Below are positions 22,263 through 62,080 of a stretch of 64,000 nt of DNA, piece after piece. The notes under the pieces were generated by a model that saw only the letters and a program-made list of their open reading frames with translations, was not told the DNA's origin and did no database searches. Made by a program: the position numbers and the translations under genes. Source of the stretch: an uncultured Rickettsiales bacterium (GTDB lineage Bacteria > Pseudomonadota > Alphaproteobacteria > Rickettsiales > RI-342); contig CAYSXY010000002.1 in NCBI GenBank assembly GCA_964435165.1, forward strand, positions 8,126 through 72,125. Direction: 5' to 3'. Position 1 is the stretch's first letter. Every line of letters begins with the position of its first letter.

Positions 22263-22514
22263 ATGGGTTCAACCATGCTTTTATTGCTAATTTTACTGCT
22301 GTTGCCGTCTCCTGCCTTTGCCTATATCGATCCGGGCACCGGCAGCCTCATTTTTCAGGCATTGGTAGCCATGCTTGCCGGGGTGCTGGTGTTTTTCAAC
22401 ACGCTGAAAATCAAGGTATTGCAATGGCTGGGCAAACTGCCTCCACCGGAAGAGAGCGAGGCAGACGATTTGGACCAGCGCCCTTCATCACATAAAGATG
22501 ATCATGTCGGCTGA
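22263..22514 (+). CDS. small membrane protein with YIDPGTGS motif
   Basis: Two hydrophobic helices (LLLLILLLLPSPAFA; LIFQALVAMLAGVLVFF). Overlaps the next gene by 17 nt. The start is uncertain (22245 GTG, 22263 or 22275 ATG). Confidence 0.45.
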   Translation: MGSTMLLLLILLLLPSPAFAYIDPGTGSLIFQALVAMLAGVLVFFNTLKIKVLQWLGKLPPPEESEADDLDQRPSSHKDDHVG

Positions 22515-23883
22515 GCCGCACCCGGCCTCATTTCGTGACCCCAAGGCCCACATATGCTGTCATGACGGGCGCATATTACGCATGTTGACTGACGAGTATC
22601 TGCCGGACTACCGCCAATTGATGGATAGTGGGCTTTATGATGCCTTACAGGAAAAGCAGTGGCTTATTAGCCATCACGAACTCTCAGCCAATGACGCGCC
22701 GGAAGGCGTGGACGCTGCGCTGGTGCTGGAGCATCCCGTCATTCCACTCATCACCTATCCCTATGAATGGTGCTTCTCGCAGTTGAAAGAGGCCGCGATC
22801 CTGACCCTGAAGATTCAGCAATTGGCCATGCGCTGCGATATGGAGTTGAAAGATGCCTCGGCATTCAACCTGCAGTGGCAGGAAGGGCGCTGGCTGCACA
22901 TCGATACGGCGTCGTTCACACGCTATAAAGAAGGGGCGCCCTGGGTGGCCTATCAGCAATTCTGCCGCCACTTCCTCGCGCCACTATTGCTGATGGCTTA
23001 TGGAGACTTACGCGCGAACGCGCTGATGCGCGTCCATCTGGACGGCATTCCGCTGGAGTTGGCCTCCACCCTGCTGCCCTATAAAACCCGATTAAAGCCC
23101 GCTATATTGATGCATATTCACTGGCATGCCCGTTCGTTGCAATCGGCCATGCAAGGTGGGGCAGGCAAGCGCGACCACCAGGTGCCCAAAGCACGACTTG
23201 AAAAGCTCATTGATCACCTGACATTGACGGTTCAGGGTTTGTCGCTTGCCAAGACTCTGACACGCTGGGGCGATTATTATACCGATACCAATTACAGCGA
23301 CGCGGCGCGCCTGCACAAAGAGCAACTGGTGCAGCAATGGGTCGCTGAGATGGCACCCTCCACCCTGTGGGATTTAGGCGCCAATACCGGCCATTACAGT
23401 AAGATCGCGCAAGGACAAGGTGCGAAAGTAGTGGCGGTGGATGAAGACCCGCTGGCGGTTGAGCGGCTCTATCACACCTTGGGGCGTGGCAATGATGCGC
23501 TGCAATGCCTGCGGATTGATCTGACCAATCCATCTCCAGCACTTGGCTGGGCGCATAAAGAGCGCGCCAGCCTGCAGCAGCGCTGCAATGCAGATATGTG
23601 TATGGCTCTGGCCTTAATTCATCATTTGACCATTGGCTGCAACATTCCTTTTTCGCATGTTGCTGGCTGGTTCAGCCGACTGGCGCCAACGCTGCTCATT
23701 GAATTTGTCGATAAAGCCGACTCACAAATTCAGGAAATGCTGCAACACCGCGAAGATGTGTTCAGTGATTACAATCTGGCATCGTTTCGCACTGCCTTTG
23801 GCGAGTATTATGACATCGTGCGCGATGAGCCGATCACAGACAGTCAGCGACGCCTGCTGCTCATGCGTCGTCGTGAGGCATAA
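22498..23883 (+). CDS. class I SAM-dependent methyltransferase with a large N-terminal domain
   Basis: SAM motif I LWDLGANTGHYS, followed by VVAVDEDP. The roughly 280 aa N-terminal domain (ASFRDPKA...) is seen in NoeA-like methyltransferases, recognised from memory. Confidence 0.6.
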   Translation: MIMSAEPHPASFRDPKAHICCHDGRILRMLTDEYLPDYRQLMDSGLYDALQEKQWLISHHELSANDAPEGVDAALVLEHPVIPLITYPYEWCFSQLKEAAILTLKIQQLAMRCDMELKDASAFNLQWQEGRWLHIDTASFTRYKEGAPWVAYQQFCRHFLAPLLLMAYGDLRANALMRVHLDGIPLELASTLLPYKTRLKPAILMHIHWHARSLQSAMQGGAGKRDHQVPKARLEKLIDHLTLTVQGLSLAKTLTRWGDYYTDTNYSDAARLHKEQLVQQWVAEMAPSTLWDLGANTGHYSKIAQGQGAKVVAVDEDPLAVERLYHTLGRGNDALQCLRIDLTNPSPALGWAHKERASLQQRCNADMCMALALIHHLTIGCNIPFSHVAGWFSRLAPTLLIEFVDKADSQIQEMLQHREDVFSDYNLASFRTAFGEYYDIVRDEPITDSQRRLLLMRRREA

Positions 23884-23886
23884 GAG

Positions 23887-25527
23887 ATGGTGAGCAAATC
23901 AACTTTGCCAGCCTATTGGTATCTTCCGGCTGTGACCGGGCTTATCGCCCCGTTGGAAGCCTATCGCATTGGCCATGATTGGTGGTCCGTCGGCGACACG
24001 TTGCTGCCAATTATGCTGATTATCCTGTTTGCGTATGCGGTGGCAGCGTTGGTCTATTGGCGTACAAAAAACGGGCCATTTTCCTTACTCATGGCGAGCA
24101 GCGCCACCTACCTATTGTTCAAATATGAAGAATTGACGATAGCCGTGAGTGCTATTGGGCCATGGATAGTCCATGATACGTTTCCAATCTTCATCGCGAT
24201 GATGATGATTGCGCTCATGCTTCGGCTGCTTGGCCATGTGCTGCGCCAGCCAAACGCTCTGCTGGCTCGCCGAGCGGTGCATGTGTTGATTCTCGTTCAC
24301 GCCGGGGTGCTCGCCGCGCTTGCAGCTCCGGTTGCTATCTCACATTCATGGCTGAATCATGACAAGACAGCATCACATGAGATGAGCATGGAAGCCGTGG
24401 ACGTCACGTCACCTGACCGCGAACTGCCGGATATCTATTATATTATTCCGGATGGTTATGCGAATGCGCGCCATGTGTTGCAGCCACTATATGGCATGGA
24501 GGCCAACCCGTTACTGCCGTTTTTAAGAGAAAAAGGCTTCTATATCGCTGAGGATAGCCGGAGCAATTATGTGCAGACAATGCTGTCGATACCTTCCAGC
24601 CTGAATATGGAATATCTGCAAACCATCTATCCGGAAATGAATCCGAAGGAAGCGAGTCGGGCTCCTTTATCCGGTTTGGTAAAGAATAACACCGTGATGA
24701 ATAACCTTCGTCATTTGGGATATGATATCAATATCCTTGAAAATGGTTTTTTGGATCGCGAAGAATCTAATGCGCTGATGTCCCTCCACGATAGGGTGAT
24801 CAAGATGTCACCGCTAACATTACTGACTTTCTTTCAGGCGGGGTACAATTTTAATCGCTTACATATTCAGTTGATTGAGGATGGAATCGCTGCGATCAAA
24901 CAGGCGGCACACCGCACAAATCACGCAAACCCTGTATTTTTTCTCGCACATTTTATCAATCCTCACCCCCCTTTCCTGGCAACCAGGGATGGGTGGATTG
25001 AGCCGGGGCCTCTCTACCGACTGTCTGATGGATCACACTTAATCGATTGGTGGGGCATGCATGACCTGCATGGCGATAATCGAGAAGAACGCCAAGCCTA
25101 TTATCGTGAAGCGTACCGTGACCAATTACTCTATTTCAATACACGCATCATGGAGATGGTTGAGACAATATTGGCGCATAATGCACGTCCGGTGTTGATT
25201 ATACTGCAGGCAGATCATGGTCCAGGCTCGCTCTGGCGTTGGGATGTGGCAGACAAGCAGGCGATCGGGCCTGCCAGTATCAATGAGCGTACCGGCATCA
25301 TCAATGCCTATTATTTTCATGACCAGCGCTATGATGCGCTATATCCGCACATCACCCCCGTCAATAGCTTTCGGGTAATGCTCAACCAGTATTTTGGACA
25401 ATCCTTACCTTTGCTGGATGATCGCGTCTTTGTCTCATTGTGGGAGCGGCCCTACGATTTTCGTGACGTCACGTCCCAACTGCGCGACATGAATCATAAC
25501 GAGGCCAGCAGGCCGGGTCAGCCTTGA
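23887..25527 (+). CDS. membrane-anchored sulfatase-like (alkaline phosphatase superfamily) hydrolase/transferase
   Basis: About five N-terminal TM helices, then PDIYYIIPDGY, FLAHFINPHPPF and ILQADHGPG, which are typical of LTA-synthase / phosphoethanolamine-transferase-like sulfatase folds. Confidence 0.6.
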   Translation: MVSKSTLPAYWYLPAVTGLIAPLEAYRIGHDWWSVGDTLLPIMLIILFAYAVAALVYWRTKNGPFSLLMASSATYLLFKYEELTIAVSAIGPWIVHDTFPIFIAMMMIALMLRLLGHVLRQPNALLARRAVHVLILVHAGVLAALAAPVAISHSWLNHDKTASHEMSMEAVDVTSPDRELPDIYYIIPDGYANARHVLQPLYGMEANPLLPFLREKGFYIAEDSRSNYVQTMLSIPSSLNMEYLQTIYPEMNPKEASRAPLSGLVKNNTVMNNLRHLGYDINILENGFLDREESNALMSLHDRVIKMSPLTLLTFFQAGYNFNRLHIQLIEDGIAAIKQAAHRTNHANPVFFLAHFINPHPPFLATRDGWIEPGPLYRLSDGSHLIDWWGMHDLHGDNREERQAYYREAYRDQLLYFNTRIMEMVETILAHNARPVLIILQADHGPGSLWRWDVADKQAIGPASINERTGIINAYYFHDQRYDALYPHITPVNSFRVMLNQYFGQSLPLLDDRVFVSLWERPYDFRDVTSQLRDMNHNEASRPGQP

Positions 25528-25745
25528 GCTATGCCTCATCGCTGAGTCAGTAGACGAAGCGGGAGGCAAAACAAAAAGTGGCCACCAGCCTTGAGCCAGC
25601 CTCATGGGGATGCAACGCATCACCGGAGGCGAACACAATAACTCCAAGCCAGCCTTGATCTGCTCTATGTGGATCCGCACGCCCACTGCAAGCGCTTATC
25701 TCACGTCGAGCATCGCTGAGTCAGTAGATGAAGCGGGAGGTGATA
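25519..25745. repeat. degenerate tandem repeats (about 64-67 bp period) bounded by two 30 bp near-identical copies
   Basis: cagccttgagNNNgcctcat recurs at 25519, 25586 and, degraded, at 25650. catcgctgagtcagtagaYgaagcgggagg occurs at 25537-25566 and 25711-25740 with 1 mismatch. The first unit overlaps the stop codon of the sulfatase-like gene. Confidence 0.6.
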
Positions 25746-25746
25746 A

Positions 25747-25849
25747 TATAGCCATTCACATTAATTTTCATACAATCTGAATGGCTATGAGGCCGCGACT
25801 CCTGCCTGCGCCATAGTTGGCGCGTAAGCCTTAGTGGGAAAAGCTATAG
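25747..25849 (+). repeat. 103 bp dispersed two-hairpin repeat, copy 1
   Basis: 100 of 103 positions are identical to 60165..60267. Hairpin 1 pairs atagccattca (25748-25758) with tgaatggctat (25778-25788). Hairpin 2 pairs tgcgcc with ggcgcg (25807-25824). Confidence 0.85.
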
Positions 25850-25977
25850 TCGTTTAAAGTTAAATGACTATATAAATGTGTCATTGCCGGGCCTGACCCG
25901 GCACAATCCGGATGACTGGTTTGAAAGTAACACGCGATAACGTTGCGATAGAGCAAGGTAAAGCTTCAGGTTTCTCG

Positions 25978-28443
25978 CTATTTCGAGGTGGCGATAAACA
26001 CACCATTCCAGTCAGCCGGTGGTGGTGATATGCGGAAATCAGCAATGCGCTCACGATATAATGCCCAGAAGATATTAAGGTCTGGCCATAATTCCTCGCC
26101 CTTGGCAATTAATTGCTCGGCAACATCAAATTTCTGGCTGCGATAGGCATTGAGCATTTCGGTATTGAGTGTAGAGAGTGCTTTGAAACGGTCACTCGAT
26201 GCCATCATATTGTCACCTAAAATAGCAAAAATACGGACCGGCTCTGTTTTGCCTTTCACCTGAAGCAGGTCAAGTTCGATGATGGCAAAGGTACCATCCG
26301 GTAACTGATTGACGGAATATTCACTGATAACGATATCTACGCCATAGGTTTTCGACTGGCCTTCCAGGCGGGAAGCAAGGTTTACATGGTCACCCAATGC
26401 GGAATAATCAAAGCGCTGGTCAGACCCCATATTACCGACGCAACAATCACCGGTATTGATGCCGATACCAATAGCAATGGGGATATGGGGGCGACCTTCA
26501 TTTTTTGCCTCGCGCTCCATATAGCGATTCATACGGTTTACTTCGTCGATCATATCCAGCGCAGCCTGGCAGCTACGCACCGGGTGGTTGGTCACCGGCA
26601 GCGGGGCATTCCAAAATGCCATAATGGCATCGCCCATATATTTGTCGATAGTCCCTTTATGTTCCAAAATCACATTGGTCATAGGTGTAAGGAAGCGATT
26701 GATGAATTTGGTCAGTCCCTCTGCATCAAATTGCTCCGAGATCGTGGTGAAACCACGAATGTCACTGAATAACAGGGTAATGTTGCGTGTCTCACCCCCC
26801 AATTTGAGCTTGTCCGGGTTATCCGCCAGCTCTTCGAGCAAGGCCGGAGAGACATAGTGAGAAAAGGCCGTTTTGACCTGCCGCCGTTCCTGTTCTTCGC
26901 GGATGTAATTAAGGTAACTCAGGCTGACAGACATGCCGAAGATCACCAGGCTGGGAAAGGCAGCATCGATCAGCATCTGCCGTGTCATATAGTAATGCCA
27001 GGCGGTATAGCACAAAATACTGATGAGACTGACAGAAAGCAGGAAGTTCCATAAAGCACTAAGCCGTGGTACCAGTGCTATCAGGAGCAGGCCGGCGGCG
27101 ATCATCATGCCGAGTTCGATCATAATGGCGAAATCTGGCCGGGTCAGGTGGGTGTGTGAGAGAATATTCTCCAGCACCTGAGCATGCACTTCAACGCCGG
27201 GAAGGGCGCCGTTTATCGGAGTCGCCCGGATATCTTTCAGCCCAATGGCCGAGGTGCCGATAATCGCCAAATGTCCTGCCAGCCGCCGCTCTGGGTGTTT
27301 GACGGTTTTTAAGAGTATATCCGTTGCCGAGACATAGATGGGGTCGGTGATGTTATAATTGGCAAAATGCACCCATATCTCGCCATAAGGCGTGGTGGGA
27401 ATTTCATATCCGCCGCCAAAGCCGCTTTTAACAACAATACTTTCAATACCGCTACCATCTTTGTGGGTTTTGAGGAAATAATCATCTCTTCCTTGCAGGG
27501 CAACGCGGATCATCTCCAGCGTCAGGGCTGGAAATATCTGGTCACCGACACGCGACATTAAGGGCACCCTGCGATAAATACCGTCCTGATCCGGCTGCGA
27601 TGAAAACAAGCCAATCCCGTTCGCGGCCTCTTCAAGCAATGGCAGGTTGCGGATGATACCAGGATAGCGCGGCAGAAATGGCTTTGGGTCATTATTCATA
27701 AAGCCGAAACCAACTTTACGCGGGAGGTTTTCCAGTTGCGTCGGTTTGTGCGTACCCACATGACCCAGTACGACCCGGCTGTTAGCAATAGCTTGACTAA
27801 AAACATCTTCATTGCTCGGAAGTGCGCGTAAAATATCCTGCACGCCGGATTCCAGCCCGTCGATTTCTTCCGCCAGTTTGGGAGGAGACATGCGATCTTC
27901 CTCGGCAAAAATCATATCGAAGCCCACCACCATCACGCCATATTCAGTGAGGTTCTGCACCAGTTGCGCGATGAGGGTACGCGGCCATGGCCATTGACCG
28001 AACTCGCTTAATGATCGATCGTCAATATCAATGATCACCACGCCGGCTTCCATTGTGGATGGGTCTGGCTGGCGCGGTTCAATACGCTGATACATATCGA
28101 ATGTTTTATGGCGCAGCATCTCCAACGTAGGATTGTCGCCTGCATTGACATATAAAATGCCCGCTAAAAAGCCAAAGCCAAGCAGGTAATGGAAGGCCAT
28201 GCCGCGGATCAGGCCGCCCATTTTGCCATAGGCACGCTTCCACAGACCAGGCGATACTTCTTTCTTAGTGCGAGACGAGCGGCGTTGAGACGATGAACTG
28301 CCGCTTCGTCCTGTTGATGAACGACGGTGTGAATGACGACCCTCGCGTGATGACGATGATGAACGCCGCCGTCTGCGGCGCTTCTTCCTATCGCCCTGAG
28401 TTGAATTATCGTCAGCAGAAGGAGCTTTCGGTTCATCGGTCAT
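25978..28443 (-). CDS. CHASE2 sensor domain adenylate/guanylate cyclase (class III)
   Basis: 821 aa. Has a TM helix, a periplasmic domain of about 300 aa, three TM helices, and a class III cyclase domain (ITLLFSDIRGFTTISE, KYMGDAIMAFWNAP, GINTGDCCVGNMGS, ALGDHVNLASRLE). The ATG lies 1 nt after the HlyD stop. Confidence 0.85.
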   Translation of the reverse strand: MTDEPKAPSADDNSTQGDRKKRRRRRRSSSSSREGRHSHRRSSTGRSGSSSSQRRSSRTKKEVSPGLWKRAYGKMGGLIRGMAFHYLLGFGFLAGILYVNAGDNPTLEMLRHKTFDMYQRIEPRQPDPSTMEAGVVIIDIDDRSLSEFGQWPWPRTLIAQLVQNLTEYGVMVVGFDMIFAEEDRMSPPKLAEEIDGLESGVQDILRALPSNEDVFSQAIANSRVVLGHVGTHKPTQLENLPRKVGFGFMNNDPKPFLPRYPGIIRNLPLLEEAANGIGLFSSQPDQDGIYRRVPLMSRVGDQIFPALTLEMIRVALQGRDDYFLKTHKDGSGIESIVVKSGFGGGYEIPTTPYGEIWVHFANYNITDPIYVSATDILLKTVKHPERRLAGHLAIIGTSAIGLKDIRATPINGALPGVEVHAQVLENILSHTHLTRPDFAIMIELGMMIAAGLLLIALVPRLSALWNFLLSVSLISILCYTAWHYYMTRQMLIDAAFPSLVIFGMSVSLSYLNYIREEQERRQVKTAFSHYVSPALLEELADNPDKLKLGGETRNITLLFSDIRGFTTISEQFDAEGLTKFINRFLTPMTNVILEHKGTIDKYMGDAIMAFWNAPLPVTNHPVRSCQAALDMIDEVNRMNRYMEREAKNEGRPHIPIAIGIGINTGDCCVGNMGSDQRFDYSALGDHVNLASRLEGQSKTYGVDIVISEYSVNQLPDGTFAIIELDLLQVKGKTEPVRIFAILGDNMMASSDRFKALSTLNTEMLNAYRSQKFDVAEQLIAKGEELWPDLNIFWALYRERIADFRISPPPADWNGVFIATSK

Positions 28444-28444
28444 C

Positions 28445-29740
28445 TCAACGCTCCCTGAATGCTTCGGAGGTGACTTTAAGCAATGGTTTGAGCAAATATT
28501 GCATCACCGTCTTGCTACCGGTTTTGATATCAGCAGAGGCTTGCATGCCAGGGGTGATAGGCAACTGGCCCGGGAGGTCTCCAAGGTAGTTTTTATTGGT
28601 ACGGATAATCACTTCAAAATAGATTTCACCGGATTTCTCATCCGTGTAGGAATCGGCTGAGACGGATTGCACCGTCCCTTCTAATCCACCAAATCGCATA
28701 TAATCATAGGTATTGACCTTCACCAGCGCATGCTGGCCATTGGTCACAAACCCGACATCATTGGGGTTAAGTCGCGCTTCGACGACAAGATTGTCACTGA
28801 TCGGCACTATTTCCATAATCACCTCTCCGGGTTTGACAACCCCGCCGAGCGTATGATTTTTGAGTGATTTTACCACGCCATCAATGGGACTTTTAATGGT
28901 GGTACGGAGCACCTGATCGGTAGCGCGGGTCAGCATTTCCTGCGAGCGGGCAATTTCCAATTCAGTATCACGCAGCAGTTCCTGCGCCTGGTTTTGATAG
29001 GTCACTTCTTCGCTTCGCAGGCGCTCTTTTGTTTCTTTTAACGCAGCACGTGAACGAGGAATGGCAACGTCAATAATTTCCAAACGACCTGTTAATTCCT
29101 GTACTTCACTCTCTAGCTGAAGGTGGTCGAGTTTCGACGTCAGTTTGTCTTTAATCAACTCGTTGGAAATGCGCATTTTTTCACGCAACACATTCAGGTT
29201 TTTCTTAATGGAGGCGCGCTCGGTCTCCAACTGGGTGACATCCAGTTCTTTTTGTTGCACCTGTTCATGTAATACGCTCAAGCTACTCTCTAACCGGCGG
29301 CGATTGCCTTCAAATGTCATAATTTCCGAGTGTACCAGTTCAGGCCGATATTCCCCATTCTCATTGGGAATGGATAGCCGCTCATCACCTCGTGCTTCAG
29401 CCATCAGGCGCAAGCGCTTGAGTTTTAGGCCTTCCAAATTCACCATTAATTCTTCTTTATTGGCAACAAAGGAGGTGATGTTCAGCTGCATGAGTTCTTC
29501 ACCCTGACTGACATGTCCACCTTCTTTCACGTGGATTTTTTCGATAATACCGCCTTCCAAATGCTGGATGGTTTGAATTTGCTCCTGTGGCACGATTTCG
29601 CCTTGCGCGACAGACACTTCTTCCACACGCGCAAAAAATGCCCACACCATCATCCCGGCCAGTAACATCATGACGAGGCGAGCCATCAGTGGCAGGTTGC
29701 TGCGTGGTGGTTGCTCCAATAATTCATCGAGTTTACTCAC
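28445..29740 (-). CDS. type I secretion membrane fusion protein, HlyD family
   Basis: N-terminal TM helix, lipoyl-like hairpin (GGIIEKIHVKEGGHVSQGEELMQL), a long coiled coil and a C-terminal beta domain ending TVMQYLLKPL. The GTG start overlaps the ABC stop (GTGA). Confidence 0.9.
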   Translation of the reverse strand: MSKLDELLEQPPRSNLPLMARLVMMLLAGMMVWAFFARVEEVSVAQGEIVPQEQIQTIQHLEGGIIEKIHVKEGGHVSQGEELMQLNITSFVANKEELMVNLEGLKLKRLRLMAEARGDERLSIPNENGEYRPELVHSEIMTFEGNRRRLESSLSVLHEQVQQKELDVTQLETERASIKKNLNVLREKMRISNELIKDKLTSKLDHLQLESEVQELTGRLEIIDVAIPRSRAALKETKERLRSEEVTYQNQAQELLRDTELEIARSQEMLTRATDQVLRTTIKSPIDGVVKSLKNHTLGGVVKPGEVIMEIVPISDNLVVEARLNPNDVGFVTNGQHALVKVNTYDYMRFGGLEGTVQSVSADSYTDEKSGEIYFEVIIRTNKNYLGDLPGQLPITPGMQASADIKTGSKTVMQYLLKPLLKVTSEAFRER

Positions 29741-31623
29741 GACGTGCCTCCTTGCCCTGTAGGTGGCATGGGTGCCGCAGGAGTATGTGGCTGTTGCGTT
29801 GCAGGCCCTGATGGTGCTGCTGGTTGTGGCGTGGCTGCGGTGGCTGGTGCCGATGGTTGGGCTGGTGCCGCAGACTGAGGGCTTGCCTGCGTGGTCTGCG
29901 GATGCGCATCATCTGGTTTGCCGCTCAACCTGGCCATCACCTTGTCCCCTGGGCCCATCATGGCAATGCGGCCGCGTTCTAGGACGATAATTCGGTGGCA
30001 CATGGTGAGCAGGGGAATGGAATGCGTCGCCAAAATAATCGTGCGGTGGGTGGCCAGTTCACGAATTGTCTGTGCAAGGCGCATTTCCGCCTCATTATCC
30101 AGATTGCTGGTAATTTCATCAAACAGGAGCACGGGGGGATTTTTCAGCAAAGCACGGGCAATGGCGAGCCGCTGACGCTGACCACCGGAGAGCTTAAACC
30201 CACCTTCGCCAATTTCTGTGGCATAGCCGTCAGGTAAATCACTAATAAACCCATCGGCATCAGCGAGCTTGGCCGCTTTGAGCACGACCTCATCCGGTGC
30301 CTCGGGCCAGGATTTGGTGATGTTATCGCGAATGGTTCCATCGAACAGGAAGCATTCCTGCGGCACATAGCCAACCCATTGCGACAATTGCTCGCGCGTA
30401 AACTGGCTGATATCCGCATTATCCAACAAAATGCGGCCCTTTTGCGGTTCATAAAGCCCCTGCAGACATTTAATCAGCGTGGTTTTGCCGCAGCCATTGC
30501 GCCCAACCAGGGCTGTCATCTCGCCGGGTTGAAACAGGCAACTTACCTCTTCCAATATTGGTTGTTGTGCATCATAGCCAAAGGTGAATTGCTCAACCGC
30601 CATATGTCCCATTGGGCGTTCACGCTCAATACCCGCTTCTTCACGCTCGGAGTCAAGGTGAAATAGCCGGTCCAGCCGAACGATGGCCTGTTTACAGGCC
30701 GCATAATTTTTCCAGTTGCCCAGCAATTGATTGAGTGGGGCGATGATCCGGCTGGCCAGCATATTAGCGGCGATCAGCGAGCCAATGGTCATCTCGCGCT
30801 CAATAATCGCGAGCGCCCCGGTCGTCACCATCATCACGGTGGTGAGCATCATCAGGCTGTGGCCTAAGCTGATGAATCCATCAGTACGCGAGCCGCGCTC
30901 ATAGGCCTGTGTGATGGATTCGGCATGCACATCTTCCCATTTCGGGGCGATGATTTTATCAATCATCAATGCTTTCACCGTGGTGCGCCCGCCCATCAGT
31001 TCGGCGACCATCGCATCGCGGTGCAGGCCTTTATGCCGCTCCTTGGCGGTGTCGACATCCTGCACATGCGATGAAAACCAGGTGAGCAGAAGAAAAAGCG
31101 GCACCACCAGCAGCAACACCCAGGCAATGGGCATGGCGATGATGCAAATCACAACGATGAAAATAATGGCAAACGGCAAATCAGCCAGCAACAATGCCGC
31201 CGGGCCGGAGAAAACACCGCGAACAGTGGCAGCATCCTGAAACAGTGATTGCCAATAGCTGGTGGGGCGCGATTCCAATGTCAGCAGCGGAAGGCTGGTG
31301 AGCTTGTGATAGAGGGCGCGGCCCAGATGCGCGTCAATATGCAGTGCGGTGGATTGCAGCATGCGACTGCGTGCCTGTCGCAATAAATAGTCAAACCCCA
31401 GTGCCAGCAACACCCCCACCACCAGCGCATAGAGCGTGCTGATACCATTATGCCCCACTACCCGGTCATACACTTGCAGGGTGAAGAGCGGTACAGCCAG
31501 CGCCAGCATGTTGGAGAAAAAGGAAACCGCCATCACCTCGCCAAACCGCGGCAATAGGGGACGCAGAATATCTTTTAACCATAGTGCATGAGGTGATTTC
31601 CACCATCCGATCATGATGTTCAA
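29737..31623 (-). CDS. type I secretion system permease/ATPase (PrtD-like, no C39 peptidase domain) with a Pro/Ala-rich C-terminal tail
   Basis: TMD opening FTLQVYDRVV, Walker A GRNGCGKTTL, signature LSGGQRQRLAIARA and Walker B VLLFDEITSNLD. The last 60 aa or so are PQTTQASPQSAAPAQPSAPATAATPQPAAP.... Confidence 0.9.
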   Translation of the reverse strand: MNIMIGWWKSPHALWLKDILRPLLPRFGEVMAVSFFSNMLALAVPLFTLQVYDRVVGHNGISTLYALVVGVLLALGFDYLLRQARSRMLQSTALHIDAHLGRALYHKLTSLPLLTLESRPTSYWQSLFQDAATVRGVFSGPAALLLADLPFAIIFIVVICIIAMPIAWVLLLVVPLFLLLTWFSSHVQDVDTAKERHKGLHRDAMVAELMGGRTTVKALMIDKIIAPKWEDVHAESITQAYERGSRTDGFISLGHSLMMLTTVMMVTTGALAIIEREMTIGSLIAANMLASRIIAPLNQLLGNWKNYAACKQAIVRLDRLFHLDSEREEAGIERERPMGHMAVEQFTFGYDAQQPILEEVSCLFQPGEMTALVGRNGCGKTTLIKCLQGLYEPQKGRILLDNADISQFTREQLSQWVGYVPQECFLFDGTIRDNITKSWPEAPDEVVLKAAKLADADGFISDLPDGYATEIGEGGFKLSGGQRQRLAIARALLKNPPVLLFDEITSNLDNEAEMRLAQTIRELATHRTIILATHSIPLLTMCHRIIVLERGRIAMMGPGDKVMARLSGKPDDAHPQTTQASPQSAAPAQPSAPATAATPQPAAPSGPATQQPHTPAAPMPPTGQGGTS

Positions 31624-31733: not shown

Positions 31734-33284
31734 GTGTGGCGTAGCGTTGATGCTATGGGCGGATGCACAACAGATATTGGTGGTTTGAGTGAGCAGCTAG
31801 CTACGCTGCGGCAGATGCGCGCGGATGATCAGACTGCCTATCGCTCCATGCGCGATGCGGTGATCATCGCCTCGCTTCCACATAGTAGTAATTACAGTAA
31901 AGACCGTGAGCGGGCCTGGTATCAGCGGGCGCGGGCGCGTCAGGGCGACCATGTGGAGACGGTGCTGTATGGTGCCATCTGGGAGGCATTGCGGCCCAAT
32001 GAGCGGCTGGTGATCGAGCAGCTCTATTACGAACATCCGCCGCTGGTGGCCGAGACGACCGGGCTGTATAAAGCGCTTCACGCCTTTGCAGAGGCGCGCG
32101 AGTCCGGCGACACGGCGCTGGCCCGGCAGCATCTACGCCATGCATTGTGGGAGCTGCTGCACAACTCGCCCTACCCGGCGCGTAATGACCTGGAGCGCGA
32201 CAAGGCCAGGCGGCGCCGCACGGCGCAAGCCATGATGCTCAATAGTATGAGCTGCTGTTTAAAGAGCCTGCCCACGCCGGATTATATCATCGAACCATTG
32301 CGGCAGCGCTATGCCAAAATGCCGCTGGAAAACTTATTGCCTGATATTGTGTTTCCGCTGGAGGAAAATGCCCGCACCATCGCCGAGGAAATTCAGCGGA
32401 TTAATGCACAGATGCAGCAGGGAATTGAAAAACTCACTGCCACCGAGCAAAAATCTATTGTCACAGACGCTGTCACCATTCCAGAAGCGACTCATGCATT
32501 TTCTGATCTCTACATGGGCATTGTTGAGACCGGGACTCGCACGCTCATTGATCAGAAGCTCGAAAAACTTGCCCAGCGAGGCTTAAACGAAGCCGAGATC
32601 AGAACAGCTCTCGAAGAAGTCTTGAGCAATCACCAAAATAACACGATCCCCTATAAGACAGAAATGCTCGCCATACATTTTCATGGCAAACTGAACGAGG
32701 TTCGGATGCGACAGGCAGGGCATACGCATTATATGTGGTTGTCCATGGATGACGACCGTGTGCGTTCGAGTCACAGCGCAAATGATGGCCAAATTTTCTC
32801 GTTTGATAATCCGCCACCCACCGGCCACCCCGGCGAAGATTATAATTGCCGCTGTCAGGCTGCACCGGTGCAGTTGGCAGCGCTGAACCTACCGCCTGCC
32901 CTCATTGCCGCCGCCATCGCAGCGACAAAAGCGACCATCAAGCGATCACAGCAAAAGATCAAAGATGCTGCGGCGAAGGTCAGAAAAAATCCTGTGGTGC
33001 GGGGAGAAAAAGCACCTAAAGGCGGCAGGAAAGATACGGACTGGTCATTTGATAAAAATAAGTCTCCAAAAAAATGGGAAAATCAAAAAAGAGAGCGAGA
33101 TTGGACGGATGAGGAGATTACAAAGGCTATAAAGCATGGTGATGCGTATCGAACTGAGAATTACAGAACTAACAAGCCAGCTACCTTATATGAATACAAT
33201 GGAAAGTATGTGGTCAGAGATGATACTACAAAAGAAATCATTCAGATTGGTTGCAAAGGATTTGAGCATCCATCGCTACCATAG
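31734..33284 (+). CDS. MuF (phage Mu F / SPP1 gp7) domain protein with a lysine-rich C-terminal module: candidate polymorphic toxin
   Basis: The MuF signature WLSMDDDRVRSSHSANDGQIFSFDNPPPTGHPGEDYNCRC lies at about 32730-32858. It is followed by a hydrophobic linker (LAALNLPPALIAAAIAA) and a basic, AT-rich tail of about 110 aa. The start is uncertain (GTG 31734 or ATG 31755). Confidence 0.7.
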   Translation: MWRSVDAMGGCTTDIGGLSEQLATLRQMRADDQTAYRSMRDAVIIASLPHSSNYSKDRERAWYQRARARQGDHVETVLYGAIWEALRPNERLVIEQLYYEHPPLVAETTGLYKALHAFAEARESGDTALARQHLRHALWELLHNSPYPARNDLERDKARRRRTAQAMMLNSMSCCLKSLPTPDYIIEPLRQRYAKMPLENLLPDIVFPLEENARTIAEEIQRINAQMQQGIEKLTATEQKSIVTDAVTIPEATHAFSDLYMGIVETGTRTLIDQKLEKLAQRGLNEAEIRTALEEVLSNHQNNTIPYKTEMLAIHFHGKLNEVRMRQAGHTHYMWLSMDDDRVRSSHSANDGQIFSFDNPPPTGHPGEDYNCRCQAAPVQLAALNLPPALIAAAIAATKATIKRSQQKIKDAAAKVRKNPVVRGEKAPKGGRKDTDWSFDKNKSPKKWENQKRERDWTDEEITKAIKHGDAYRTENYRTNKPATLYEYNGKYVVRDDTTKEIIQIGCKGFEHPSLP

Positions 33285-33293
33285 GAGGAGATT

Positions 33294-33521
33294 ATGAAAA
33301 CGATAAAACTTTATGTACAGCTCTTAGGTGAGGCTGTTCCTACTGTTCGCCCTACAGAAGCTGAAGTGTTGAGTAACGGCCTGTATAAGCTGCTACCAAC
33401 AGAGAGCTATAATCCTGAGGATGAAGTATGGGAGTTTCTCCCAGGCAGTATTGTGAGCAGAAAGGAAATAAAAAATATTAAAGGTCAAAACATGAATGTT
33501 GCAATAGCACCTGAAAAATAA
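33294..33521 (+). CDS. candidate cognate immunity protein (75 aa)
   Basis: Starts 9 nt after the toxin stop and has a strong SD (tAGGAGGagattATG). It shares the AT-rich composition of the toxin C-terminal module. No family recognised. Confidence 0.45.
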   Translation: MKTIKLYVQLLGEAVPTVRPTEAEVLSNGLYKLLPTESYNPEDEVWEFLPGSIVSRKEIKNIKGQNMNVAIAPEK

Positions 33522-33588: not shown

Positions 33589-34035
33589 GTGCGGCCAAAA
33601 GTCGATGAGGAAATCACTAAGCAGGCTGAGCAGGGTAAGACGGAAAATGAGATAGATGAACACCTGACGCAGGTGATCGCACATTATCAGGATACGACCA
33701 TTCCCTACAAAACGCAGATGCTGGCGACGCATAGCTTTATACTATTGATTCATTTCTTAACAGGCATGAATCAGCGCTCAAATGGCGCTAAGCCTCACGC
33801 GCCATAAGGCGCGACGCGTAGTCACGCTTGCTCGCCATTCCAACGATTGGAATGGCGAGAATAGTAAGCTCAGCGAATTGGCGATGCGTGAGCAGGGCTA
33901 CACCACTATATCTGGCATTCGCAGGATGACCCCAAAGTACGGCCCGACCATGCCGCCAATGATGGCCAGATTTTTTCTCTTGATAACCCGCCACCCACGG
34001 ACCACCCGGGCGAAGATTACAAATGGCCGGAATGA
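33589..34035 (+). pseudogene. orphan, disrupted MuF-domain fragment (paralogue of the 3' half of the 31734 gene)
   Basis: The block 33589-33732 (VDEEITKQAEQGKTENEIDEHLTQVIAHYQDTTIPYKTQMLATH) matches IDQKLEKLAQRGLNEAEIRTALEEVLSNHQNNTIPYKTEMLAIH. The block 33925-34035 (DDPKVRPDHAANDGQIFSLDNPPPTDHPGEDYKWPE*) matches DDDRVRSSHSANDGQIFSFDNPPPTGHPGEDY. Both blocks are in the same frame, separated by about 123 extra bp that contain stop codons. Confidence 0.65.
33785..33865 (-). repeat. diverged, inverted member of the two-hairpin repeat family, inserted in the MuF remnant
   Basis: ctaagcctcacgcgccataaggcgcg...ctcgccattcc-aacgatt-ggaatggcgag parallels the reverse complement of the 103 bp repeat (ctaaggcttacgcgccaactatggcgc...atagccattca-loop-tgaatggctat). 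It has the same order of a GC hairpin followed by a gccatt / aatggc hairpin. Confidence 0.4.
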
Positions 34036-34048
34036 ACGCCAGACAGGC

Positions 34049-34606
34049 TTAAGCGGTCAATTTATGGGTATATTGAACAAATCTCTCGACAGTGCGCGTT
34101 ACGTCGCGCGACACCACAGGGTGATGTATGGTGCCATCCTCATCGAATTGCTGAAAAGCATCGGACACAGTGATCATACTGGGATAGACATAAGTGCCAA
34201 GTGCCTCCAGCGGCACGCGAAAATGCAGCAGCCCTTTGATGCCACCCTGCAGTGATGGCGAGGCGGACAAGAGCAGGGCAGATTTACCGGCAAGAGGCAC
34301 TGGGCGCAGACGCGAAATCCAATCAATGATATTTTTCGCGCTGCCGGGGTACGACCAGTTATATTCCGGCAGGGCGATCATCAGGCCATCATGCGCCATA
34401 ATCTGGTCAGCAAGGCGCTGGGCGGCTTCCGGCAGGCCATTATGCTCAAACAAATGGTCGTTATAGGCGGGCATATCCAGGGTGCAGTAATCTACCAAAG
34501 TGACATTCGCATCCTGCGCTTCGGCGCGTCCGGCGGCATAAGTGACGAGCTTGCGGTTGACAGAGCCTTCACGAGCTGAAGCGGCAAAGGCGAGTAGAGA
34601 AACCAT
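34049..34606 (-). CDS. NADPH-dependent FMN reductase family oxidoreductase
   Basis: FMN_red motifs (LLAFAASAREGSVNRKL at the N-terminus, LPEYNWSYPGSAKNIIDW). The track ORF extends to 34651; the MVSLLAF start at 34606 fits the family. Confidence 0.8.
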   Translation of the reverse strand: MVSLLAFAASAREGSVNRKLVTYAAGRAEAQDANVTLVDYCTLDMPAYNDHLFEHNGLPEAAQRLADQIMAHDGLMIALPEYNWSYPGSAKNIIDWISRLRPVPLAGKSALLLSASPSLQGGIKGLLHFRVPLEALGTYVYPSMITVSDAFQQFDEDGTIHHPVVSRDVTRTVERFVQYTHKLTA

Positions 34607-34767
34607 AATAACCCCTGATAATGCACATATATGATAAGGCCTAGTCGTCATACCGGTTAATACAGGCCTGTCAATGCACAGACAAAGCCGTTACATGCTG
34701 AAAAGAGATGCTTGCACGGCATCATCTTCCTTAACAACCGCGGCCGGATGCCGCATAATAGCGCGCT

Positions 34768-36084
34768 ATGGATAAAGAAGACATACTTGCGAATTTTCTG
34801 GATGCCCTGTATCGCGAAATCCGCGACATGGAAATGGCGTGCCGAATGCAGGCGGCGCCAGATGATCTGCGACCACCGATAGACGTACACCATGATGCGG
34901 TTCGGGCGATTTTATCGAAACAGCAGGGCTATGCGCCGGGCCAACGCCTGTCCGTCACATGGTTGTCGCATGATATCATGGCGCTCCGTCAACGTGCACG
35001 CTGGCTACGCAGCGGGCCACATGTCTGGTGGGAAGGACGTGATCCACACTATGCTAAAACACGGGATCAATGCATTGCCTTCAAGCGTCAGTTGATTCGC
35101 AGCAAGGCGGAGATTGATATTCCGCTGGAGATATTACAGCAGGACCTTGCAGATTTCGCCAGGCGTTATGTCAATGAACGGCATTTGCTGGATGGCGCTC
35201 TGTATGAGCGTAACGCCCAAAAATGGGCGCGGCGTGCCGGTCGCCATCACTGGCAGGCAGTCTCAGGTGAGGAGTTCTGGAAAGGGCTACGTTATACGGC
35301 GCGTTATTTTTCCAGCTTGCTGCAGCGATTAGCAGAGCAGGGGGCTCCCGGCCTGTTAGCGCATGAAGCAAAAACGCAACAGACGGTAACGCCCTCAGAC
35401 CAGTTAGCTGAAAGTCGGCGGGCACTTAAAAATTTATGGCTACAAATTGTGCATCCGCTTGTACTACGCGGCAGCATTGTGCCGGATGAGACGCGTGAGC
35501 ATCATTATCACCTGGATACATCACGCCACATTCCTGAGCGCCATTGGCAGCAAATGGGCAGTGAAGCTGCAGAACTGGCGGATGCCTATGACCGCTATAC
35601 GGTGATGTTTGCGGCGATGACAGCCGATACGGTGGATTATCATTATAAGGCATTGCTGGACGACCTGGACCAGCAGGTGATAGATGTAGCAGCGCTGATT
35701 CGGGAAATCGAGGCGCTGGAACGTGGCGGCAACAAGCTTGAGCTGCATCAACTCGAGCGGATGGTCCGTGAATTGGAAAATGAAGAACTCAAGCGCCGAC
35801 TGCTTGAATTGCTCGAGAAATATAAGGCCGATACGAGTGGAAATGCGACGCTGAATGCTACGGAAGCAGCCAATCAGGTCATGGATGAAGTTGATCAGCA
35901 AATCGACAAGCTGGAGCAGGCACATTTTGATTTTCTGGCGACGCAGTTCACTGTCTATGAAGAATCGCAGGATGTGGTGCGCAAACTGGCCGGGCAGGGG
36001 CTGAATATTGCTGGCAAATTTGTTGAAGCGGCAGCCGCCATGGCCGCGGCACGGCAGCAGGATCGCGGCAATCGCGGGCGGTGA
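34768..36084 (+). CDS. hypothetical 438 aa protein with a coiled-coil C-terminal half
   Basis: Long ORF with genome-like codon usage. Has no signal peptide or TM helix. Contains heptad-like acidic segments (IREIEALERGGNKLELHQLERMVRELENEELKRRLLELLEKYK). No family recognised. Confidence 0.5.
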   Translation: MDKEDILANFLDALYREIRDMEMACRMQAAPDDLRPPIDVHHDAVRAILSKQQGYAPGQRLSVTWLSHDIMALRQRARWLRSGPHVWWEGRDPHYAKTRDQCIAFKRQLIRSKAEIDIPLEILQQDLADFARRYVNERHLLDGALYERNAQKWARRAGRHHWQAVSGEEFWKGLRYTARYFSSLLQRLAEQGAPGLLAHEAKTQQTVTPSDQLAESRRALKNLWLQIVHPLVLRGSIVPDETREHHYHLDTSRHIPERHWQQMGSEAAELADAYDRYTVMFAAMTADTVDYHYKALLDDLDQQVIDVAALIREIEALERGGNKLELHQLERMVRELENEELKRRLLELLEKYKADTSGNATLNATEAANQVMDEVDQQIDKLEQAHFDFLATQFTVYEESQDVVRKLAGQGLNIAGKFVEAAAAMAAARQQDRGNRGR

Positions 36085-58435: not shown

Positions 58436-59427
58436 CTCGCCACACCTCATCAGACCATCCACAGCATCGTGAGCTCACTGTTGCTTCCGGTGATGACGGA
58501 CAGCGGCTGGATCGCTGGCTCAAACGCCATGCCCCGGAAGTGCCATATGGACTGATGCAAAAATGGTTGCGTAAAGGTGCCATTCGGGTCAATCGGCAAA
58601 AAGCCAAGGGTGATCTGCGACTCCAGGCCGGGCAGCAGGTCAGTCTCCCATCCATGGCTGATGCGCAAACACCAGGTGAGCCTGCCCGATCGGCATCTAA
58701 ACATGTCCCTATTACCAAAGCGGAACGCCGCCGCGTAGAAGAAATGCTGATCGAAGAAGATGATGAACTGATTGTCATCAACAAGTCGGCCGGTCTCTCT
58801 GCCCAGGGTGGAAGTAAGGTCGGGGCGAGTGTTGATAGCTTGCTGCGTCGTTATTATGCGGGGCGATGCGAACCAAGGCTCATCCATCGGTTGGATCGGG
58901 ACACCTCCGGTGTCATGGTCATGGCAAAACACCGTGAAGCAGCCGCACAGCTCTCCGCTAAACTGCAACAACAGCAATGGCAGAAAACCTACTGGGCTGT
59001 GGTGGTTGGCGTGCCGACACCGCAGGAAGGAAGCATCATTCTGCCGCTGGCGAAAGAAGCGAAAGGAAAGCATTCCCGCACCATGCCAAGCCGTGAGACT
59101 ATGCAGCCGAATGAGCGCGGCAAATATGCAGAGACTCAGTTCCGCGTGTTGGACAAGGCCGCGCAAACACTGTCATGGCTGGAAATGACTCCCATTACCG
59201 GTCGTACCCACCAATTGCGCGTCCACAGTGAAGCCATCGGCCACCCGATTGTGGGTGATGGAAAATATGGCGGAAATGCAGCCTTTATCGATGGGCTGGC
59301 CCAACAGTTGCACCTGCATGCACGAACCATTGAAATTCCGCGCAAGAAAGGTAAAACAGTGACTTATGAGGCTCCATTGCCGCCGCATATGAAAGACACC
59401 TTCGCTCTCTTTGGATTTACGCTATGA
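58432..59427 (+). CDS. rluC: RluA/RluC family pseudouridine synthase
   Basis: S4-like N-terminus (GQRLDRWLK...VRVNRQK) and catalytic HRLDRDTSG. The ATG at 58432 overlaps the crcB stop (ATGA). Confidence 0.85.
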   Translation: MTRHTSSDHPQHRELTVASGDDGQRLDRWLKRHAPEVPYGLMQKWLRKGAIRVNRQKAKGDLRLQAGQQVSLPSMADAQTPGEPARSASKHVPITKAERRRVEEMLIEEDDELIVINKSAGLSAQGGSKVGASVDSLLRRYYAGRCEPRLIHRLDRDTSGVMVMAKHREAAAQLSAKLQQQQWQKTYWAVVVGVPTPQEGSIILPLAKEAKGKHSRTMPSRETMQPNERGKYAETQFRVLDKAAQTLSWLEMTPITGRTHQLRVHSEAIGHPIVGDGKYGGNAAFIDGLAQQLHLHARTIEIPRKKGKTVTYEAPLPPHMKDTFALFGFTL

Positions 59428-60131
59428 AACTGGCTGACATCATCACAGTGACCGAACATCACGATCCGGTCGGTTTTGGGGTCTCAGCTCGGCATAACCC
59501 GATCAAGACTCCCGCAGGTTATCCGTTGGTGCTTCCCTATCGTTTGCTGGCAGAAGCCATCGCAGATGAATGGCGTTCGCAGGAAAGCATCCAGAAGATA
59601 AGCCCGGCAAGTATGCCGTTTTATGGGTTGAGTGTGCTGGCGCTGGACATGATGTCGCAGGAGCGTGAGCGCAAGCAGGCAGAGCTTGTCTCTTTCGCCC
59701 GGAATGATTTGCTCTGCTACCGCGTGGATGAACCCGCCGCACTGGTGGAAGAACAATCCAAACTCTGGGATCGCTGGCTAAGCTGGGGCGAGGAGATTTA
59801 TGGCGTGCCGCTCATTGTCACTAAAAGCATCATGCCAATTGAACAGCATGAATTGGTCACGGAGCGTGCCGACGCACTACTCACGGAGATGAATGTGTTC
59901 GAATTGGCCGGGTTTTATCAGGCGGTGCGCTTATCAGGCTCGTTTATTCTGGCCTTGGCGTTTCAGCGTCAACTGCTCTCGCCGAACAAGCTGTATGAAC
60001 TCTCGCAGCTTGAAGAGCGTTTTCAACAGCGTCAATGGGGAGAAGATAGTGAGGCGAGGGAACGTCTGGAGCAACGGCGTCAAGAGTTACATCTGATCTA
60101 CCGCTATGGCCAGTGTATCTCGCATGCGTGA
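59424..60131 (+). CDS. ATP12 family F1-ATPase assembly chaperone
   Basis: LKTPAG.PLVLP...LAEAIADEW pattern. Located after rluC, as in many Alphaproteobacteria (recognised from memory). Confidence 0.7.
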   Translation: MKLADIITVTEHHDPVGFGVSARHNPIKTPAGYPLVLPYRLLAEAIADEWRSQESIQKISPASMPFYGLSVLALDMMSQERERKQAELVSFARNDLLCYRVDEPAALVEEQSKLWDRWLSWGEEIYGVPLIVTKSIMPIEQHELVTERADALLTEMNVFELAGFYQAVRLSGSFILALAFQRQLLSPNKLYELSQLEERFQQRQWGEDSEARERLEQRRQELHLIYRYGQCISHA

Positions 60132-60164: not shown

Positions 60165-60267
60165 TATAGCCGTTCACATTAATTTTCATACAATCTGAAT
60201 GGCTATGAGGCCGCGACTGCTGCCCGCGCCATAGTTGGCGCGTAAGCCTTAGTGGGAAAAGCTATAG
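60165..60267 (+). repeat. 103 bp dispersed two-hairpin repeat, copy 2
   Basis: 100 of 103 positions are identical to 25747..25849. Located 34 bp after the ATP12 stop and about 70 bp before the ABC-like gene. Confidence 0.85.
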
Positions 60268-60335
60268 GCGTATTTCCCGCCATTTCTTGTCGAATAAGAT
60301 ACCCAACGGCTCGATTTTCACCTATATAGCCCGCG

Positions 60336-62080
60336 GTGAAATGGCTGGAGATAAAGGTGCATCAAATCCCTGCAACGGCGAATGAATTATCACAGGAGAT
60401 AAAACGGCTGATATCGCTGATTATCGCCGATGATAATCGGTTGATCGGCCTAGCATTGATTTATGGGATTGGTATCAGCCTGCTGACACTGTCTGTTCCA
60501 ACAGCCGTACAGATGCTGATTAACTCCGTGGTTCATACCACGTCTGTCACGGCAGTGATGACCCTGGCATTTGTTTTGCTGCTACTGCTGTTGGTCTCCG
60601 GCTTGTTTAATGCGGTACAGGCTTACGTCATGGAGCTGTTCGAACGGCGGTTCTATGCGCGCATCACATCGGAATTTACGCTGCGTATTATCTATGCCGA
60701 TCACACCTATTTTGACCGGATCAACCGCTACGAACTGGTCAATCGCTATTTTGACATCATGACGGTACAATCCATCATACCCAATCTCATTGTCGGTTTG
60801 TTCGCGCTCATTCTGCAAATGATCGTCGGATTTACACTAGTCTCGTTTTATCACCCGTGGCTGTTTCTGTTCAATCTGGGTATCATCATCGTATTATACT
60901 TAATCTGGCGCATCTGGGGACATAATGCCATACGGACCGTTTTTCCTTATCGGCGGCGAAATATGCAACCGCCCATCATTTAGAAGATATCGCACGCGCC
61001 AACAGTTTTTTCAAAACCGCGACCCACATCAATCAGGCATTGAAGAAAAGCGACAGCATGACAGGGCGCTATATTCAGGAACGGCGCCAGCATTTTCGTT
61101 ATACCTTTTCGCAGCATGTTGCCTTGCTCCTATTATACGCCGTTGCCAGTGCACTTCTGCTGGGAGTGGGTGGAATTCTGGTGCTGAGGGCAGAATTGAC
61201 CATTGGCCAGCTTGTGGCGGCGGAGCTGGTGCTAACCGCGGTATTTTACGGGCTTTCACGGGCAGGCTATTATCTTCAGCAATGCTATAAGCTGTTTGCC
61301 GCATTAGAAGAAATATCGCTGTTTTTCGATGTGCCGCTCGAAGCAATGGAGGGAACGAAGACGCTGGACTCCACAGAGTCACTGGTCATTTCCTACCGGC
61401 AGGCAGCCTTTACCGAGGGTGAGAAAGAGACGCGATTCAATTTCGAGATCGAGTCGGGCAAAAATATACTGATCAGTTGCCAAAGCCAGTCTTTGGAGGC
61501 GTTACTGCTTGATACGCTCAAATATTATCGCAAACCGGATAAAGGAAGCATTCTGGTCAATGATCATGCGCTGGAAGATTATGATGTACAGCATATGCGT
61601 GGTCAGATTATCATTCAGGACAGACCGACCATTGTGGAATGCACAGTGGAAGAATATCTGCAATTTGCCTCGTCAGAGAAGATCAGCGCAACCGAGATGA
61701 ATCATGTGCTTGCGCTGGTGGAGCTGGATCAGAAGATCGCCTCGTTGCCACAAGGACTAGCCACCAGCCTCACCGTGACCGGGCTGCCGCTGTCTCTGTC
61801 CGAAACCTTGCGCCTCAAACTTGCCCTGGCATTGTTATCGAAGCCCAAAATACTCGTACTGACGGAATTATTCGACATGATTTCAACCAAGCGCCGTAGG
61901 CGGATTCTGGTCCGGCTGTGCGATGAACCGTCCTTTTCAGTGCTGTATGTGTCGAACCGCATCGATGTAGAGATGTTCGATGACTATTTATATGTGGGAG
62001 CCCGGGAACAGATATGGCTGCCTGATGCCAATGCATTAAGGTCAGTGGAAGAAAGCAACGTTGAGACAGCACATGACTGA
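60336..62080 (+). pseudogene. ABC exporter-like protein (TMD + catalytically degenerate NBD), interrupted by a frameshift
   Basis: ORFs 60336..60983 and 61040..62080 together form one ABC TMD-NBD. The two frames overlap at 60926-60983, and adding one T to the T5 run at 60940-60944 restores ...NAIRTVFSLSAAKYATAHHLEDIARANSFFKT.... In the NBD, Walker A is ESGKNILISCQSQSLEA, the signature is LPLSLSE, Walker B is ILVLTELFD and the H-loop is VSNR. Confidence 0.7.

Follow-up and report, generated by a model that had tools for sequence, protein, structure and literature searches.

A candidate MITE-like intergenic repeat family at gene 3′ ends in an uncultured Rickettsiales bacterium

Bacteria commonly carry small palindromic or MITE-like intergenic repeats. 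Those of the alphaproteobacteria include RIME (Rhizobium-specific intergenic mosaic elements) and Bru-RS1/2 of Brucella, which are intergenic, ~100–110 bp long and contain two large palindromes. The Correia elements start with TATAG, as does the element described here. Bacterial MITEs measure 100–200 bp, carry terminal inverted repeats (TIRs), form stable folds and typically have TA ends (Delihas 2008, PMC2229807, Table 1); their features are also given by Minnick (2024, PMC10969869). CIR1–4 are CcrM-associated intergenic repeats of Caulobacter (Chen and Shapiro 2003, in the form in which Delihas 2008, PMC2229807, summarizes them). RUP, the repeat unit of pneumococcus, is a 107-bp MITE mobilized by IS630-Spn1 (PMC2229807), and the Correia elements (NEMIS) of Neisseria are co-transcribed as folded RNA, with promoter-like hexamers in some subtypes (PMC2229807; PMC10969869).

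The element considered here, A, occurs as two near-identical copies, A1 and A2, within a window of 64,000 nucleotides (the whole stretch of DNA that was analyzed), together with one diverged member, B. By architecture and host class, its closest described relative is CIR of Caulobacter and Brucella. Like A, CIR repeats are alphaproteobacterial, ~110 nt long and strictly intergenic, with stops in all frames and TA termini (PMC2229807), and they are built as two independent stem-loop arms with a linker between them. Unlike A, they carry a phylogenetically conserved GANTC (CcrM) site at a terminal loop and show no pairing between their 5′ and 3′ ends, whereas the ends of A pair at 14 of 18 positions. 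Of the two copies of A, only A1 has such a site, GACTC, in its linker, A2 having lost it; in B, GANTC is found only in an extra hairpin, against a background of 0.32 sites per 100 nt. Since no conserved terminal-loop GANTC is found, the family is not filed as CIR, the comparison being one of published descriptions.

By size and termini, the closest systems are RUP and Correia. RUP shares with A the length of 107 bp, a short TIR, TA termini or target, an intergenic location, stops in six frames and the existence of near-identical copies suggesting recent mobility (PMC2229807). It differs in that its TIRs match a known IS630 and that it has about 108 copies, whereas for A two copies and one diverged relative are seen, with no known cognate IS. 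The two elements come from unrelated hosts and share no sequence similarity. Correia elements resemble A in length (about 107–155 bp), in TA termini and in the presence of TIRs (PMC2229807; PMC10969869). They differ in having TIRs of 24–26 bp, one long hairpin, hundreds of copies and, in the long form, an IHF site; the TIR of A, in contrast, is short and imperfect, its interior is multi-hairpin, and its promoter-like site is not conserved between copies. RIME and Bru-RS1/2 are like A in host class, size and intergenic palindromes, a likeness drawn by description only. Small palindromic and MITE-like intergenic repeats are, in short, a well-known class, and the A/B family is best seen as a new member of it, specific to its lineage.

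Structure and setting of the two near-identical copies

The earlier note, made from the letters of the window, had reported a repeat in two dispersed copies, and this holds: positions 25747–25849 and 60165–60267 are identical at 100 of 103 positions in the same orientation, with mismatches at element positions 8 (A/G), 55 (C/G) and 61 (T/C). When the comparison is extended to 25747–25853 and 60165–60271, the copies agree at 103 of 107 positions, the fourth mismatch falling at position 104; outside these 107 nt the flanks are unrelated and the boundaries of homology are sharp. A1 and A2 are thus direct repeats 34.4 kb apart. A 46-nt probe, with up to three mismatches allowed, matches the A1 and A2 sites only, and shuffles (n = 100) give 0 expected matches. 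The features of A are as follows.

25747–25853, + strand: copy A1; TIR-bounded core 25747–25848, likeness to A2 running to 25853
60165–60271, + strand: copy A2; begins 33 nt past the ATP12 stop and stops 86 nt short of the called start of the frameshifted ABC exporter
25747–25764, + strand: 5′ TIR arm, TATAGCCATTCACATTAA, which doubles as the 5′ arm of hairpin 1; A2 equivalent 60165–60182
25831–25848, + strand: 3′ TIR arm, TTAGTGGGAAAAGCTATA, complementary to the 5′ arm at 14/18 bases; A2 equivalent 60249–60266
25748–25788, + strand: hairpin 1, with a stem of 11–15 bp and a loop of 11–19 nt
25807–25824, + strand: hairpin 2, the GC hairpin YGCGCC-ATAGTT-GGCGCG
25845–25872, unstranded: 28-nt palindrome TATAGTCGTTTAA-AG-TTAAATGACTATA, abutting A1 and overlapping its last bases; absent at A2

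The ends of A form an imperfect TIR, TATAGCCATTCACATTAA / TTAGTGGGAAAAGCTATA, the complementarity of which has a probability of about 1e-4 by shuffling: the same level was reached by 2 of 20000 shuffles of the element and by 8 of 20000 random 107-mers drawn from the window. Because these 18-nt ends are complementary, the core can be delimited as a 102-nt unit with TA/TATAG at each end (TATAG...CTATA in both A1 and A2). The likeness between the copies overruns the inverted repeat by 5 nt (G-N-CGT), which a strictly TIR-bounded unit does not predict. It should be noted that the TA/TATAG at both ends falls inside the shared sequence and is inseparable from a target-site duplication (TSD); the flanks contain no other clear direct repeat. 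The 5′ arm has two possible partners, namely the perfect internal arm that completes hairpin 1 and the 3′ terminus. Elsewhere in the window, the terminal motif TATAGCCATTCA, with up to two mismatches, occurs only at chance frequency.

Both hairpins that had been proposed are present. The 11-bp stem ATAGCCATTCA/TGAATGGCTAT, with its 19-nt loop, is perfect in the first copy and contains one G·T in the second, and the GC hairpin is found in the form given above. On either strand, A folds better than shuffled sequence (z = −2.7 to −4.0). Two of the A1/A2 differences are stem substitutions (A-U to G·U and U·G to C-G) that keep pairing on the plus strand only. The near-perfect palindrome at the end of A1 has arms that resemble the element terminus TATAGYCATT, and it may represent a minimal or solo unit of the A family or, equally, a nested insertion at the terminal TA.

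As had been stated, neither copy contains an ORF of note, all six frames of the repeat holding stop codons. The G+C content of the element is 47–50%, as against ~52% in the window, and the element is not clearly AT-rich. A conserved mini-ORF was considered and rejected: A encodes MAMRPRLLPAP and a stop, with both substitutions synonymous, and the ORF of B that begins at the same ATG encodes the unrelated MASKRDYASRLMAREA and a stop. A built-in promoter was likewise rejected, the candidate TAGCCA-16-TACAAT being found in A1 only, weakened in A2 and without its corresponding loop in B.

The flanking gene calls place both copies in intergenic DNA. A1 lies, as expected, between a sulfatase-like gene (23887–25527, +) and a CHASE2 adenylate/guanylate cyclase gene (25978–28443, −), in a spacer of 450 nt; the cyclase is the last gene of an ABC-HlyD-cyclase operon. 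The product of the sulfatase-like gene scores 19.1 bits for the Sulfatase family, below the curated cut-off of 25 bits, and two large ORFs, 22498–23883 (461 aa) and 34768–36084 (438 aa), match no Pfam family at the thresholds used. Copy 1 had been described as preceded by a block of degenerate tandem repeats; Tandem Repeats Finder detects no tandem array there, and what stands is one pair of 30-nt direct repeats. This repeat, CATCGCTGAGTCAGTAGAYGAAGCGGGAGG, is located at 25537 and 25711, 174 nt apart, in the spacer 25528–25746, which also contains three AGCCTTGA motifs, the first of them overlapping the stop of the sulfatase-like gene. Within 90 kb (the window and 26 kb of additional DNA from the same genome), the spacer repeats do not recur.

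A2 lies between the ATP12 gene (59424–60131, +) and the ABC exporter gene (from 60357, +). A1 is therefore downstream of and antisense to the intact ABC-HlyD operon, and A2 is upstream of and sense to a degraded paralogue; this opposite placement indicates that the element was not copied along with the operon. The operon paralogues beside A1 and A2 are much more diverged than the element, sharing one 35-nt match at 71%. The T1SS-type ABC exporter (60357–63098 region) is frameshifted into 208 + 340 aa, its homologues being about 570 aa long, and the HlyD-like gene that follows is also split (62061–62456 / 62466–63098). These split gene calls are repeated on a Logan contig, and the intact ABC-HlyD-CHASE2 cyclase operon at 25978–31623 appears to have a decaying paralogue in 60357–63098.

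Separate Logan contigs of run SRR7048223 extend into both A1 and A2 with copy-specific variants, which confirms both copies in the reads. Contigs end inside the element at positions 38, 74 and 75. A k = 31 assembly graph of two copies that differ at positions 8, 55, 61 and 104 predicts exactly these ends; hence they carry no information on extra copies.

A diverged third member and the reach of the family

A1 and A2 were combined into a covariance model, which was run with filters off over the window and the 26 kb of extra DNA (90 kb). It returned one further full-length match, B, at 25.3 bits (E about 0.002), the next unrelated match in the 90 kb scoring 10.6 bits.

33766–33862, − strand: diverged member B, found by the covariance model; limits by eye from a closing inverted repeat at about 33732–33877

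B is also the top non-self match of a sequence-only nhmmer profile of A1/A2 (E = 0.009), and the reciprocal nhmmer search with B alone did not recover A. Our confidence in the relationship between B and A is modest.

All five predicted helices are kept in B, as judged from pair counts in the alignment fitted to the model. In the same model-fitted alignment, hairpin 1 of B shows three double changes from A-U to C-G, and its loop is 3 nt long as compared with 19 nt in A. The feature conserved across A and B is thus the stem, rather than fixed spacing. The GC hairpin and the short unpaired motifs GACT and CTTAG are also common to A and B. The fold of B is very stable (z = −4.6 to −5.5). B has an extra 8-bp hairpin and a closing inverted repeat of its own, AGCTTACTATT / AATAGT-ATA-AAGCT, of 11 bp with a 3-nt bulge, which was identified by eye only. 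A double-stranded operator for a dimeric regulator was rejected as an interpretation of the family, the spacing of the half-sites differing by 16 nt between A and B.

B sits between a 75-aa ORF (33294–33521, +) and an FMN reductase gene (34049–34651, −), which are convergent, 187 nt past the stop of the FMN reductase gene. All three members are accordingly intergenic and lie 3′ of a gene end, and two are between convergent genes. As to the neighborhood of B, the 31734–33521 region encodes a 516-aa protein with a Phage_Mu_F domain and a C-terminal Colicin E5 ribonuclease domain, with the 75-aa ORF, which has no Pfam match, directly after it. This pair looks like a MuF-type polymorphic toxin and its immunity gene, divergent from the ABC/HlyD/cyclase operon.

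The earlier note had raised the case that only its two copies exist; instead, three family members, two near-identical and one diverged, are found within the 90 kb available. A model rebuilt to include B finds no fourth member in the 90 kb, and the Logan contigs of SRR7048223, which extend the window by 8.1 kb on its upstream side and by 1.8 kb on its downstream side, contain no additional copy. Wider searches for the element were negative. Among GTDB representative genomes (the host genome is not one of them), the 20-mer TCTGAATGGCTATGAGGCCG gave three matches, all chance matches inside coding sequence; in JGI metagenomes, CCATAGTTGGCGCGTAAGCC gave one chance match; IMG/VR contained no match to the element. 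BLASTN (word size 11) against plasmids and phages returned nothing; the plasmids, to which both A and B were compared, numbered 72,556 and were drawn from any host group. The host itself, by this analysis an orphan alphaproteobacterium close to Rhodospirillales, has no close sequenced relative, the best identities among 5.8 billion proteins being 82% for EF-G, 49% for the ABC exporter and 44% for ATP12, and exact window proteins are found only on one NCBI contig and in Logan run SRR7048223.

A probable MITE-like element and the competing readings

In our opinion, the family probably represents a lineage-specific, non-autonomous MITE-like (CIR/RUP/Correia-like) element that is tolerated at the 3′ ends of transcription units, a reading that we adopt with some reserve. 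It is drawn from the combination of small size, absence of coding capacity, sharp ends, TA termini, an imperfect TIR, a stable fold, intergenic sites at 3′ ends, and young copies accompanied by an older relative. MITEs are shorter than 500 bp, usually 100–200 bp, and non-coding, and A is 102–107 nt long with stops in six frames; MITE TIRs are about 4–30 bp long, and A has 14/18 complementary termini; MITEs have 5′-TA-3′ termini, and so do both A copies. Under this reading, the best explanation of the three members is that A1 and A2 are two recent copies and that B, also of this family, is older and has diverged. The choice between a dispersed REP/MITE-like element and a structured sRNA, which the earlier note had left standing, can thus be narrowed: sharp limits, TA/TATAG ends, the 14/18 TIR, unrelated contexts and the existence of B favor the former, and the sRNA part of the proposal finds no Rfam family, shared promoter or terminator.

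We infer a transposition step in which a transposase encoded elsewhere would recognize the inverted termini TATAG...CTATA, the terminal hairpin, or both, and would copy or move the ~102–107-nt unit into TA-containing, AT-rich intergenic DNA. Insertions would survive where harm is small, i.e., at the 3′ ends of transcription units, and there the element would probably be transcribed along with the unit, forming a folded 3′ tail. No transposase, integrase or Y1 transposase was seen among the window ORFs scanned, nor among the called genes of two flanking contigs, and neither the window nor the flanking contigs showed a longer element with these ends.

An unlikely alternative is that the family is a hairpin-recognized element of the REP/REPIN type or derived from IS200/IS605, moved as single-stranded DNA by a single-copy Y1 (RAYT-like) transposase. 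There would then be no true TIR or TSD, and the TATAG at each end would be a cleavage or target motif. Several observations are consistent with this. The hairpins are conserved between A and B, their stems through double changes and with free loop length; an identical 5-nt TATAG stands at both ends of A; the members lie at the 3′ ends of genes; and the palindrome that abuts A1 has the same arm motif, a mosaic arrangement like that of BIME/REP clusters. REP, BIME and REPIN elements are indeed palindromic extragenic units at gene 3′ ends that show compensatory hairpin change and mosaic clustering. REP units, however, are 20–40 nt long, and a REPIN consists of two inverted REPs and a spacer that form one long hairpin (PMC3337134); A is a composite of ~100 nt with several hairpins, in which hairpin 1 alone fits the one-hairpin architecture loosely. 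A 14/18 TIR is unexpected for the class, no Y1 transposase is encoded in the window, and no RAYT gene was seen there.

That the members form a paralogous family of structured RNAs, either sRNA genes or 3′-UTR-derived RNAs, with a fold under selection at the RNA level, also seems to us improbable. In its favor stand the retention of every helix in B, with double changes, the A1/A2 stem substitutions that keep pairing on the plus strand only, the shared unpaired GACT and CTTAG motifs and the position of each member downstream of a gene on its own strand. Against it, two transitions that preserve pairing would arise by chance with a probability of about 0.1–0.25, the opposite strand folds equally well, and orientation is uninformative in convergent intergenic regions. 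A1 and A2 have no promoter-like site in common, and none of the copies contains an intrinsic terminator or is followed by one. A scan of the whole window against Rfam 15, which the earlier note had proposed, gave no match at the gathering threshold, with only sub-threshold noise near A1 and B.

A stronger functional version, to which we give still less credence, would take the members as functional structured RNAs (or single-stranded DNA hairpin elements) of a deep, unsampled, Rhodospirillales-like lineage that act at 3′ ends and are not passive transposon relics. The fold would be held by compensatory change between subfamilies, and the elements could serve, for example, in mRNA stabilization or processing or as 3′-UTR-derived regulators.

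We think it quite doubtful that the copies arose by non-mobile duplication, a single event of recombination or gene conversion affecting a structured 3′-end module and possibly connected with the paralogous ABC/HlyD export loci. Only two near-identical copies are documented, A1 and A2 both adjoin paralogous ABC-HlyD loci, and the likeness runs 5 nt past the inverted repeat, all of which would fit such an event. The placement of A1 downstream and antisense and of A2 upstream and sense speaks against joint copying with the operon, however, and the far greater divergence of the operon paralogues, the sharp homology boundaries and the presence of B in a third, unrelated context also weigh against a non-mobile duplication. 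Finally, the reading of A1 and A2 as attL/attR of an integrated island or prophage spanning 25.8–60.2 kb, which might be suggested by direct repeats of ~100 nt in the same orientation 34.4 kb apart, is refuted by the gene content of the interval, which holds the S7, EF-G, S10/spc ribosomal protein, SecY, Adk (adenylate kinase), MgsA and ATP12 genes and shows no integrase and no composition shift.

Significance for the host genome and lineage

Taken by itself, the family is of small importance. It is of practical use in three ways. The repeat marks repeat-induced assembly breaks in the host genome, and the 34-kb segment between its two direct copies, which contains the ribosomal protein operons, could be deleted or amplified through them. 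The A/B model provides a seed for cataloguing mobile DNA in a lineage that lacks close sequenced relatives. Should it be true that the conserved fold is selected at the RNA level, the family would constitute a new RNA family.
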